Shown: positions 21,858 to 62,675 of the stretch, one piece after another | Layout: each line of letters starts with the position of its first letter | Numbering within the stretch: position 1 is the first letter of the stretch | Assembly: GCA_951406725.2 (NCBI GenBank) | Contig: OX597816.1 | Coordinates: 146,754,001 to 146,818,000 of the forward strand | Length of the DNA: 64,000 nucleotides | Direction: 5' to 3' | DNA from: Octopus vulgaris | Lineage: Eukaryota | Notes under the pieces: generated by a model | Database searches by the model: none | Told to the model about the DNA's origin: nothing | Seen by the model: the letters and a program-made list of their open reading frames with translations, nothing else | Translations under genes and position numbers: made by a program

Positions 21858-22065
21858 AGTTAATCCAAACAAGAAAACACAGAAAAAAACACAGCAACGC
21901 GAGGACGTGGAACAATTAAAGTATTATTTGACGCTCAGGAAAGAATGGAAGGAGGGTTTAACGTTTCGAACGGAGCTCTTCGTCGGAAACAAAGGAGAAG
22001 GAAAGATCCCGAGAAGGGAAGACAGAGGAAAAAATATTTTTGCTGGTGGTGCTCAAGAGATCACA
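21858..22065 (-). mobile_element. Penelope-like pLTR-type fragment between (TA)n tracts
   Basis: A unique ~200-bp segment bounded by (TA)n on both sides and containing a hammerhead motif. Confidence 0.6.
21956..21990 (-). ncRNA. Minimal type-I hammerhead ribozyme motif
   Basis: Minus strand GUUU-CCGACGA-A-GAGC-UCC-GUUC-GAAA-CG-UU-AAAC. Helix I is GUUU/AAAC, helix II is GAGC/GUUC, helix III is the palindrome ACGU, and the site is GUU. U4C core variant. Confidence 0.7.
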
Positions 22066-22092: not shown

Positions 22093-22281
22093 TCAAAATA
22101 AGCAACAAGAATGACTCCGGTAATTTGGTACGATAGAAACGATCGTACCAAATTATCGGAGACATTCTTGTTACTTATTTTGATTATAATCACCCCAAGG
22201 ATTTTTATGGATAACACCATACAAAATTCTGGTGCATCTAAATTAAGTACCATATTCATTTGAATATAAATTCTTGCTGAA

Positions 22282-24310: not shown

Positions 24311-24472
24311 ACATCGAAAAATAACCCAGGTTTGGAATTTCCCCAAGACACCTGATGAAGGCGGGAAGGTATATCTGCCAAAACGTTGTCTTAACAAAAA
24401 ATAAGATGATGCCAAATATCCATGAAATATAAATAATGTACATAATTCTTCATCTCTTAAATATGGAACAGT
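24311..24472 (+). mobile_element. Penelope-like pLTR fragment with a degenerate hammerhead (24347-24392)
   Basis: gacac-CTGATGA-a-ggcggg..tctgcc-AAAA-CG-TT-gtc (G12 to A). Its flanks match the PLE fragment at 32966-33025 on the minus strand. It follows a (TA)n tract. Confidence 0.7.
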
Positions 24473-24995
24473 ATTGCAGAATGAGTTATTTACATTGAGA
24501 TAACACGTAAAAACACTGAAAATTATATCGTTGACAGAGAGGAAGTATCTGCTACGTTTGTCGGAAGTTCCCGGTCACGTGATTTGACCTTGCACAGTGG
24601 TACACATCCAGCGTCTCGATGACAAAGGAATCTCTCGTCAAACATAAATGGAATCTAAGTGTCTATTCCGGCACGGATATTACAATTAGCCAAAACATCG
24701 AGAAAAGCAGTGTTAATACCAAAAAATAATCTTGATCTCCACATTTACTTGAAATTTCTGTTAGAACACAGAATATTGCATTCCTACCGTGTGAGGAACT
24801 TGCATATGACTCATGATAAAAACACTCGAAATTGTATCGTCGAGTACGGCAATCGAAATAATGTTTTAATAAGCCGACTGCCTCTTTCTCTCTCTATAAG
24901 TCTCTTTCCCTCTCTTTCTTTCTGTATACATGCATAATACATACATACATACATACATACATACATACATACATACATACACATACATACATGCA

Positions 24996-32540: not shown

Positions 32541-32589
32541 AGAATTGAGATGTAGGTTTTGATGATTCCAGTGGTGATCGGAGCTTTAG

Positions 32590-32950
32590 GGTGAATATCG
32601 TCTGTCGCTACGTTCTGAGTTCATATGCTCCCTTTCATCATTTCGGGGTCGATTAAATAAGTACCAGTTACGCATTGGGGTCGCTATACTCGAGTTAATC
32701 CCCTCCCCCAATCTACCCTTGTGGCAAAATTTTTTATTATTATAATTAATAATTATTATTATTATTATTAATAGAACTGTTAGCACGCCGGGCGAGAGGC
32801 TTAGCGGTATTTCGTCTGTCGCTACGTTTTGAGATCAAATTCTGCCGAGGTCGACTTTGCATTTCATCCTTTTGGAGGTCGATAAATTAAATAATCGGCT
32901 TGCCCCTCACCCAAATTTTAGGCGTTGTGCCTATAATGGAAAGATTAATA
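32590..32950 (+). mobile_element. Two tandem SINE family C copies (32590-32730, 32770-32950) separated by (ATT)n
   Basis: Both contain ctacgtt.tgag.tca...tttcatc.ttt.gg.gtcgat.aa.taa. Confidence 0.8.
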
Positions 32951-32965
32951 ATATTACTATTATTC

Positions 32966-33375
32966 TTACTCAGTTCTATATTTCTTCGGGAAATTTTGAA
33001 CCTGTTTTTTTATGTTGTTATTAAGGCCACTGGAATCGAACTCAGAATCTTGAGGTTTGTAGCCCGCGGTCTTAACCACGCCATATGTCCGTGGGCAATT
33101 ATGGAGTGAATGTTAGGGCTTATAAATCTAATATTATCCTATCCTTCCCATATGCTCTTCATATCTGCAATTGGTCTGCTTAGGCGGTTGTTGTGACCTA
33201 GCATATGTGCTGCTTCTTTTAGTTTTCGTATTTTCCAGTGGTGTTCTGTCTATTATTTTAATTTCATCCCTCAGGGGGAGATGGTCTCCATTTTTCCATA
33301 CATGATCAGTTATGTCCGATTTATCAATATCTCCCCGTGTCACGGCTTTACGATATTCTTCTACCTTTATTTTGA
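32966..33375 (-). mobile_element. Penelope-like element 3' fragment: GIY-YIG endonuclease C-terminus, tRNA-like segment and start of pLTR
   Basis: Minus strand VEEYRKAVTRGDIDKSDITDHVWKNGDHLPLRDEIKIIDR/HWKIRKLKEAAHMLGHNNRLSRP...IW fits the PLE GIY-YIG C-terminal pattern (EH..KSAxxEHxW..H...I.D...R..KEA.HI). The downstream sequence matches 24311-24347 and 24459-24471. Confidence 0.78.
33025..33090 (-). promoter_or_regulatory. tRNA-like Pol III promoter cassette (degenerate A box, good B box)
   Basis: Minus strand ggacatatggcgtggttaagaccgcgggctacaaacctcaagattctGAGTTCGATTCCagtggcc. It is not a complete tRNA. Confidence 0.6.
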
Positions 33376-33562
33376 AGTGATGTATTACTTTTTAATACTG
33401 TCCTGATGTGATATGGGTCACATATCTTTTTGTATCTTTTCGGAGAGACCTTTCACATAGAGTAGACAGACTGTGGACAGTTTATCGGTTTCATTCTTTC
33501 TTTTACTTCATAACTGGAGTGGAGAGTATGCTCCAATAGCATACTATCAAGCGCATACTAAC

Positions 33563-34020
33563 AGGTGCATTCGTGGTTGTATGGTAAGAAGCTTCTTCCT
33601 AACCACATGTTCCAGGGTTCAATTCCACTGTAGTCGGGTTGACCAAATCCTTGTAAGTGAATTTGGTAGCTGGAAGCTGAATTAAGTCTGATGTATGTGA
33701 GTGTGTATGTGTGTGTTAGTGAGTGTGTGTGTGCGAGTGAGTGTGTGTATGTTAGTGAGTGTGTGAGTGGGGGGGATCGTGTACGTATGTGTGTGAGTGT
33801 GCGCGCACACGTGTGTGTGTGTCTGCATGTGTGTCTTTCTGTCTGTTTGTTTCCCACTACAACTTGACAAACTGTGCTGGTGTATTTACGTCCCCGTAAA
33901 GTAGCGGTTCAGTAATAGTGACTGATAGACTAAGTACGTGGCTTTAAACATGTAAGTTCTTGGACTAAAATTTTTTCACTGCCATAGCATGGCCACAGAC
34001 AAACAAATAAAAGATAAATA
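33563..34020 (+). mobile_element. SINE family A with expanded internal TG repeat
   Basis: gtggttgtatggtaagaagc...gggttcaattccactg...atagcatggccacagacaaacaaataaaag. Confidence 0.8.
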
Positions 34021-55080: not shown

Positions 55081-55700
55081 AGTCTACATGTATATATACG
55101 TGTTTGCGTGTGTGTGAGTGTGTGTGTGAGTGTGTGTGCGTGTGTGTGTGTGACTAAATTCATAAAGTGAAACCGTTAAACCGATAAATCTTTTAACTTA
55201 GGCGATAGTTATTAGTAAGGCATGTCATGATGTTATTAAAATAGAATTTTGATTATTTTCATCTTTGATCTTCACAAATGTTTGTTGGTTTGCATGTTTC
55301 TTTCAAGTTTTCATTGTTTTATAAGCAAATTGATCAGCAAATAGAAATTTTAATCCATGTTACACATAATAGTAGGAAATACCCTAAATAACAACAATAA
55401 GAAACTGACCAGCTAAAACATACCATCTGCATACAGTCTTCTGTTAATCCATAAAAATATTATTCTTGTTTAAGAATAATATAAATATAATATACATATA
55501 TACATATATACAAACATATATGTATATATAATATAAATAATATATATATATGCATATATACGTACGTATATGTACATAGTTACATATATATATATACCGG
55601 AGTAAACACATAAATGTGAAACAAGGTGGAAAAAAGTGTACTCCAATACCAGTGGTAGAGTAATATGCTTTATTTAAAGCAGCAGAAAATTCAACAAAAT

Positions 55701-55738
55701 CTGTTACTCTGAGTTTCTCGTTGCCGTTCATCAGACAG
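55701..55738 (-). ncRNA. Minimal type-I hammerhead ribozyme motif
   Basis: Minus strand CUGU-CUGAUGA-ACG-GCAA-CGA-GAAA-CUCAGAG-UA-ACAG. Canonical core, helix II capped by GCAA (A.A at its base), helix III ACUC-A-GAGU, GUA site, helix I CUGU/ACAG. Confidence 0.8.
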
Positions 55739-55765
55739 TTTTTGCTAGGATTTTTGTAGCAAAAA

Positions 55766-55803
55766 CTGTCTGATGAACGCCAACGAGAAACTCAGAGTAA
55801 CAG
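55766..55803 (+). ncRNA. Minimal type-I hammerhead ribozyme motif (inverted partner)
   Basis: CTGT-CTGATGA-ACG-CCAA-CGA-GAAA-CTCAGAG-TA-ACAG. Confidence 0.8.
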
Positions 55804-55835
55804 ATTTTGTTGAATTTTCTGCTGCCTTATATAAA

Positions 55836-62418: not shown

Positions 62419-62509
62419 AAATAAATGCGAAACACGGTGGAAGAATAGTACTCGAATATCAGAGGTAGAGTAATATGCTTTATTAAAAAGGAGCAAAAAT
62501 ATCACAAAA

Positions 62510-62547
62510 CTGTTACTCAGAGTTTCACGTTCTCGTTCGTCGGACAG
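62510..62547 (-). ncRNA. Minimal type-I hammerhead ribozyme motif
   Basis: Minus strand CUGU-CCGACGA-ACG-AGAA-CGU-GAAA-CUCUGAG-UA-ACAG, with a 3-bp helix II and a U4C variant. Confidence 0.72.
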
Positions 62548-62585
62548 TTTTGTTTAAAACTAAAACTATTTTGTTTTAATCAAAA

Positions 62586-62623
62586 CTGTCCGAAGAAAGG
62601 GAGCGTGAAACTCTGAGTAACAG
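62586..62623 (+). ncRNA. Hammerhead motif, inverted partner, helix II decayed
   Basis: CTGT-CCGAAGA-AAGGGAGCGT-GAAA-CTCTGAG-TA-ACAG. Confidence 0.55.
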
Positions 62624-62675
62624 TTTTTGTGATATTTTTGCTGCTCTTAATAAAGTGTGTGTGTGTGTATATGTG

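Follow-up and report, generated by a model that had tools for sequence, protein, structure and literature searches.

A tRNA-like head with predicted Pol III boxes in the 3' end of an octopus Penelope-like element, and its likely place upstream of a hammerhead

A short, decayed retroelement in the genome of Octopus vulgaris raises the question of whether a Penelope-like element (PLE) can carry a tRNA-like Pol III promoter between its endonuclease and its hammerhead ribozyme, and what such a promoter could do for the element. The locus lies in a window of 64,000 nucleotides (contig OX597816.1, positions 146,754,001 to 146,818,000), which is the whole stretch of DNA analysed and to which all coordinates refer. 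The window is AT-rich animal DNA with many microsatellites, and the 150 whole-window Rfam matches listed, out of 275, are mostly microsatellite noise.

Judging from its sequence matches, the region 33540-32973 (minus strand) is a dead, decayed copy of an abundant octopus retroelement of the Penelope/Poseidon type. Read on the minus strand, the order is the end of the reverse transcriptase (RT), the C-terminus of the endonuclease (EN), a stop, 29 nt, a tRNA-like head, a remnant of (AAT)n and two hammerhead flanks. Every block that a sequence-only reading had placed in this order was found at 32973-33540. The features are as follows.

33378..33530, minus strand: 3' end of the RT (thumb region), frameshifted, the 5'-truncated start of the copy (tblastn to P0003; repeat depth)
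33145..33376, minus strand: C-terminal part of the GIY-YIG endonuclease, frameshift at 33244 (P0001 match, contig indel)
33120..33146, minus strand: end of the family ORF, with its final codons and the stop (the window reads KDRIILDL and stop; P0002 ends KDRKMSGL)
33091..33119, minus strand: 29-nt 3' UTR (sequence reading and contig loose ends behind 33079)
33021..33090, minus strand: tRNA-like head with predicted Pol III type-2 promoter boxes (box letters, contigs, relaxed ARAGORN c[33021,33085])
33083-33076, minus strand: remnant of box A, 3 nt deleted in the window copy (intact in family contigs)
33042-33032, minus strand: box B (33-nt spacer from box A)
33005..33023, minus strand: remnant of the (AAT)n linker (family contigs show a short linker, then (AAT)n)
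32984..33004, minus strand: entry block upstream of the hammerhead (aligns to 24327-24347)
32973..32983, minus strand: tail-end block (10 of 11 nt identical to 24459-24469)
24311..24472, plus strand: a separate 5'-truncated 3' end with entry, minimal type I hammerhead and tail, no head, adjoining (TA)n

The gap between endonuclease and head, first given as about 45 nt, is 29 nt because the family stop sits at 33122-33120. Two other repeats flank the PLE fragment. At 32550-32940 (plus strand) there are two tandem copies, with a spacing of 214-230 nt, of a SINE-like repeat that we take to be CORE-type, and at 33574-33680 (plus strand) there is a further tRNA-type head with A and B boxes.

The coding part was compared with protein sequences by tblastn. 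The RT end matches P0003 at 76% over 33504-33430 and at 52% over 33440-33378, and the repeat depth of aligned contigs (80% likeness) drops beyond about 33530. The endonuclease C-terminus matches the O. vulgaris protein P0001 at 86% (33376-33245) and 85% (33246-33145), with a sum E-value of 4e-30, and the reading frame 33245-33391 (minus strand) matches an O. vulgaris protein at 86% and an O. sinensis protein at 77%. The 2-nt indel at 33244 is present in 28-31 contigs per large run. The earlier description of this piece as a GIY-YIG-like C-terminus holds for the C-terminal part, as the matches to P0001 show, but not for the GIY and YIG motifs themselves, which are deleted in the window copy together with the RT-EN linker, near 33378.

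Longer relatives share 54-60% identity with P0003, and one protein of the P0003-relative cluster (P0016, 806 aa) has an RVT_1 match (E 1e-8) followed by a homologous endonuclease C-terminus. For the intact endonuclease piece P0002 the nearest entries are GIY-YIG clusters in the ESM Atlas (score 0.96; PF01541 in 17% of the members), and Pfam gives no GIY-YIG match in the endonuclease piece or in the longer relatives. When the alignments were inspected by eye, the CCHH motif was found with CSC, H93 and H110 invariant in A2; the window copy has lost CSC plus one of the histidines. No extra zinc finger or CxxC was seen by eye in the RT-EN linker of alignments A1/A2, whereas Neptune and Nematis have an extra zinc finger there. 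The order in the window, RT end and then endonuclease, is that of EN+ PLEs, and the layout is, to judge from these motifs, the canonical one of Penelope/Poseidon as set out in the relevant part of PMC8557442, the clade being assigned by motif and not by a tree. A structure model of the endonuclease region has a mean pLDDT of 39, and a PDB sequence search returned only RT chains and chance matches. A sister PLE family that looks young, with an ORF of 806 aa, is represented by the P0004 cluster (38 members from ENA and Logan); its endonuclease is 72% identical to the octopus-type P0002.

What, then, is the tRNA-like head? In the family, box A agrees with 9 of the 9 specified bases of the Pol III consensus as quoted in PMC8969392, and box B, 33 nt after box A, with 8 of 9. 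The distance falls within the 30-35 nt that separates boxes A and B in tRNA-SINEs; in the window copy box A is broken. ARAGORN calls the head at relaxed thresholds only (it is one of the 11 calls made at -ps83 and is no longer called at -ps85 or higher), and Rfam gives no match, tRNA included, for 33090-33021; we reject a functional tRNA gene. No direct repeat was seen flanking 33021-33090, and the head is internal to the PLE at this locus rather than a flanked, free-standing tRNA-SINE. The exact head pattern has no match in viral, metagenome and prokaryote collections, where octopus DNA is not expected. Around the start of the head (33084-33097, minus strand), the 7 nt that precede it can be read in part as the reverse complement of its first bases, and the consensus of the loose ends in run X1 forms an 18-nt palindrome there; a fold-back junction may account for this, or else what is left of the 3' acceptor strand of a tRNA.

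The head has the full length of a tRNA and relaxed ARAGORN draws it as a cloverleaf, which would suit a role at the RNA level, where the fold is cut by RNase P/RNase Z or recognised by the RT and, jointly with the hammerhead, sets one end of the RNA. However, the T-stem of the window copy pairs poorly while the letters of box B are kept, and in the tests on this decayed copy the fold is no better than that of shuffled sequences (z -0.77), next to the missing Rfam tRNA match. We regard such a role as very improbable.

To ask if the head belongs to the family, contigs from 4 of 24 listed public runs were aligned to 32945-33560 at 80% likeness, giving 2869, 4174, 3406 and 240 contigs; the organism labels of these runs are, in order, A, B, D and B. 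Most of these contigs are less than 95% alike to the window copy. The contig depth is unbroken from about 33500 to 33030. From the side of the UTR, 52, 62, 65 and 8 contigs in the four runs reach into the head at 33078 with identical letters, and they restore the box A that is 3 nt short in the window copy. One contig of 258 nt covers 33078-33247 unbroken, reaching back from the start of box A into the endonuclease. Among the contigs listed there is one in which 33064 is joined to 33173, its shorter side being 35 nt long, and a second joint of this kind is weak, with a side of only 22 nt. Downstream, the loose ends of 41, 59 and 63 contigs before 33030 read a short linker and then (AAT)n. No single contig among those listed spans the whole stretch, or head and hammerhead; they break at (AAT)n.

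Many copies, in runs that bear three organism labels, have the ORF, the 29-nt UTR, the head and (AAT)n linked to one another. In three of the runs dozens of contigs lead from the 3' UTR into the head, so that the idea of a head confined to this locus fails, and these contigs, found under three organism labels, rule out a SINE insertion that happened only here.

The ratio of summed contig depth between head and endonuclease is 0.83, 0.99 and 0.44 in the three large runs, a rough measure that is not a copy number. Run X4, which is perhaps RNA, has a ratio of 2.25 and was left out of the argument. Because of these ratios the head is unlike a far more abundant free SINE. They bear on the proposal that there are two families, a free LINE-mobilised SINE (head plus AAT tail) without hammerhead, and a PLE that holds one captured copy of it. 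Contigs with unrelated flanks upstream of the head do occur in all four runs, none of those listed can be followed past (AAT)n, and several tRNA-derived SINEs are described from Octopus (Ohshima and Okada 1994, as cited in PMC4758252 and PMC10886601), all of which would fit two families. Yet the depth of the head does not exceed that of the endonuclease in the three large runs, and the head resembles the other SINE heads of the window only weakly, with a best E-value of 0.21. We consider two families improbable.

The link from head to hammerhead was followed by comparison with the 3' end at 24311-24472, which very probably belongs to the same family as the copy at 32973-33540, to judge from the aligned blocks. 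The hammerhead there (24347-24392) is damaged, with CUGAUGA intact and GAAA reading AAAA. Rfam gives no match to it, and in the predicted fold stems I and II form (z -0.41). The last two blocks of the window copy had been said to flank the hammerhead region, and they do align to 24327-24347 and 24459-24469; between the entry block (33004-32984) and the tail-end block (32983-32973) 111 nt are absent, hammerhead included, which bears out the claim that the ribozyme is deleted in this copy. When the entry block was compared with 2116 overlapping 180-nt windows, its best non-self match was 24311-24347, with a score of 32 against 27 for the next, and a score of 32 is reached by 5 of 5000 shuffles. 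The same match has an nhmmer E-value of 0.36 and is absent from the blastn report, so that taken alone it would be modest evidence.

Two proteins point to the same link. The N-terminus of P0001 finds its best window match in an antisense reading of the tail of 24311-24472 (9 of 14 aa, E 0.005, the next being 0.69), after which P0001 enters the same endonuclease. P0023, from the sister family, opens with the same type of hammerhead read antisense (13 of 31 aa, E 0.083), and this reading runs in frame into its PLE ORF. Both matches are short and weak when taken singly, and P0001 is a predicted gene model, possibly spliced. The antisense N-termini fit what an inverted pseudo-LTR (pLTR) would imply, an arrangement that PMC8557442 describes for PLEs in the part that concerns us; at 32973-33540 itself no pLTR structure, tandem or inverted, is visible.

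The similarity of the window copy to 24311-24472 and the two independent proteins thus strongly suggest that the hammerhead is linked to the head. Taken together, the individually weak matches make it highly probable that the parent element has the layout endonuclease, tRNA-like head, hammerhead, tail, as had been proposed; the contigs that join UTR and head, the similarity to 24311-24472 and P0001/P0023 all support it. A search with one candidate for predicted proteins reading across both head and hammerhead gave no match, and the antisense frame of 24311-24499 gave five matches, none of which covers the head. The hammerhead entry pattern was not found in viral contigs, where octopus DNA is not expected, and the family motifs are absent from the searched supplements of PMC8557442 and PMC4824008.

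A scan for related loci gave none in viral or prokaryote sets and four distant ones in metagenomes, which form two near-identical pairs. One pair (L001:3344 and L002:3344), a distant PLE at 51% identity, carries an intact minimal hammerhead about 160 nt past a deleted endonuclease remnant and no A/B-box head; because of this pair the head is not general to the clade. The remaining two loci have neither hammerhead nor head.

Is the promoter used? If Pol III starts at or just before the head, short copies should begin close to it. Among the contigs listed, 62, 88, 57 and 9 have loose ends upstream of the head and agree with the element only to about 33097, that is 14 nt before box A, and the flanks beyond differ between runs. 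Many head-bearing contigs part into unrelated flanks within the last 7 nt of the UTR. In the three large runs the loose ends listed upstream of the head have a median length of 34-63 nt and an agreement of 0.54-0.59, while those listed at the indel sites 33148 and 33247 have medians of 12-23 nt and an agreement of 0.70-0.81. Such long, discordant ends are what Pol III-initiated copies would leave, and we take them as a hint. A combination of 5' truncation and clipping at the 3-nt indel could mimic the upstream boundary, and the loose ends bear on the upstream side of these copies, not on the sequence that follows the head in them.

The main rival to a reading in which Pol III drives the head is a passive passenger, captured once in the 3' UTR and carried along with no useful transcription, with the short copies being plain 5' truncations. 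It would explain why head plus (AAT)n resembles a simple SINE insertion and why 24311-24472 has no head; this 3' end starts downstream of the head, like any 5'-truncated copy, and PLEs are routinely 5'-truncated according to the pertinent section of PMC8969392. The Penelope promoter characterised in PMC2377424 is described there as resembling TATA-less LINE promoters, and a recent burst would leave the boxes intact without selection. Against a passenger, box A is intact with identical letters under three organism labels although most contigs are less than 95% alike to the window copy, and the long discordant flanks are enriched directly upstream of the head. A passenger is in our view possible but somewhat doubtful.

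We lean, by a little, to the reading in which the boxes of the head still drive Pol III through hammerhead and tail, and would so give short RNAs that can be inserted by the RT and endonuclease of the element. No T4 stop is found in the linker, hammerhead and tail of the copies seen. Its absence is weak evidence, because 19% of random 290-nt stretches also have no T4, as is true of the upstream coding strand.

For the Pol III-driven reading we propose the following course. A tRNA retrocopy or a simple SINE (head plus AAT tail) would have landed once in the ancestral 3' UTR, and the captured head would then have amplified along with the element. Boxes A and B would be bound by TFIIIC, Pol III would start about 14 nt upstream of box A and read through linker, hammerhead and tail, and the minimal hammerhead, probably as a dimer, would trim tandem transcripts. 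The short RNA, of about 250-300 nt, would carry the 3' signals for the RT and endonuclease of the element, and its insertion would yield a SINE-like daughter that is non-coding. For the full ORF RNA, Pol II would probably still be the source, as in other PLEs. The wider picture, a PLE that carries its own SINE, with a Pol III promoter in the pLTR and each copy a source of ribozyme-trimmed RNAs reinserted by its own RT, is offered tentatively.

The head had also been suggested to explain the many hammerhead inserts of the window. This is not supported, as the other hammerhead-like inserts (55676-55829, 62490-62644 and 21990) have no detectable sequence in common with 24311-24472, which itself lacks the head. 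With inserts so unrelated in sequence, we reject the view that the window's hammerhead inserts all derive from the head.

These inserts can be described in their own right. A second minimal hammerhead family, its CUGAUGA and GAAAC cores intact, is present as an inverted pair at 55676-55829; the pair adjoins (TA)n and looks like the inverted pLTR of a PLE. A second inverted pair, at 62490-62644, has variant first cores and is kin to the family at 55676-55829 (nhmmer E 1e-7). At about 21955-21990 (minus strand) a minimal hammerhead-like motif occurs singly, its first core being a variant one; a long inverted repeat lies nearby at about 22095-22185. Outside the window, five proteins from ENA contigs (P0025-P0029) are antisense readings of hammerheads of the 24311-24472 type, which stand in tandem in four of the five (P0025 and P0027-P0029) with about four units in P0025; these would be retrozyme-like arrays of the sister family in another organism.

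How does the octopus element relate to known systems? EN+ Penelope/Poseidon PLEs with a minimal hammerhead in the pseudo-LTR are described in PMC4209133 and PMC8557442. In the parts of these sources that treat the layout, the elements share with the octopus family the RT followed by a C-terminal GIY-YIG and a short 3' UTR; the minimal type I hammerhead, the tail and an inverted pLTR next to truncated copies would probably be shared as well. The octopus family differs in having the A/B-box cassette and (AAT)n between stop and hammerhead; neither 'tRNA' nor 'polymerase III' occurs in the main text of PMC4209133.

The sequence-only reading did not recognise the SINE-like, PLE-mobilised system as a standard described arrangement, which overstates how new the short unit is. 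Short non-coding units in which a hammerhead comes after a Pol III promoter are already known from Schistosoma, in the repeats Sm-alpha as well as Sj-alpha (PMC6765202), and Sm-alpha is of tRNA-Gln origin (PMC2770079). The passages of PMC6765202 and PMC2770079 that deal with Sm-alpha do not present it as belonging to an autonomous PLE, whereas the octopus unit is joined to a PLE ORF. Cleavage by the Sm-alpha hammerhead is reported in vitro, while the octopus unit is known here from sequence.

Animal non-LTR retrozymes are proposed to be non-autonomous derivatives of PLEs (PMC7229834; bioRxiv 10.64898/2026.07.22.740005). As presented in the relevant sections, they are short hammerhead units akin to PLE pLTRs and are thought to be PLE-mobilised, but they are defined as tandem repeats, and the octopus unit is not seen in tandem within the window. 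The units found there are single copies, not the non-coding tandem units of retrozymes and Sm-alpha, each of which has an active hammerhead, and the copy at 32973-33540 is joined to coding sequence. The words tRNA, Pol III, promoter and Octopus do not occur in the main text of bioRxiv 10.64898/2026.07.22.740005.

Another parallel is found in the TRIMp3 elements Helenus, Ajax and Cassandra, which have a Pol III promoter derived from a small RNA inside the terminal repeat; according to the section of PMC10886601 on these elements, the promoter is proposed to stem from the insertion of a SINE into the repeat, which resembles the origin considered here. They differ in that they are true LTR elements, not autonomous, which have PBS and PPT but lack a ribozyme, while the octopus case is the pseudo-LTR of a coding PLE.

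In the literature searched no autonomous PLE is described whose pseudo-LTR holds a tRNA-derived promoter; Repbase, Dfam or the Zenodo library may hold the family. Octopus repeats are treated in parts of PMC8967140, PMC6962438 and PMC4758252. PLEs make up 6.83% of O. vulgaris according to the supplement of PMC13282606, which makes no mention of hammerhead or ribozyme. What is new here would be the presence of PLE ORF, promoter cassette and hammerhead in one element: a PLE origin is proposed for retrozymes and a Pol III promoter is known for Sm-alpha, and the sources covered do not bring the two together in a single element.

The finding bears on how the short hammerhead repeats of animal genomes are transcribed and mobilised. 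The probable row of ORF, promoter and hammerhead occurs at high copy number in a well-assembled genus, so that the question can be tested on genome and RNA data that already exist. Annotation is concerned too, as some octopus repeats that are filed as SINEs or tRNA pseudogenes may be the ends of PLEs. If the proposal is true, the octopus family would be an intermediate that shows how PLEs give rise to Sm-alpha-type repeats and tRNA-bearing retrozymes, and would stand as an example of SINEs driven by Pol III and mobilised by a PLE.
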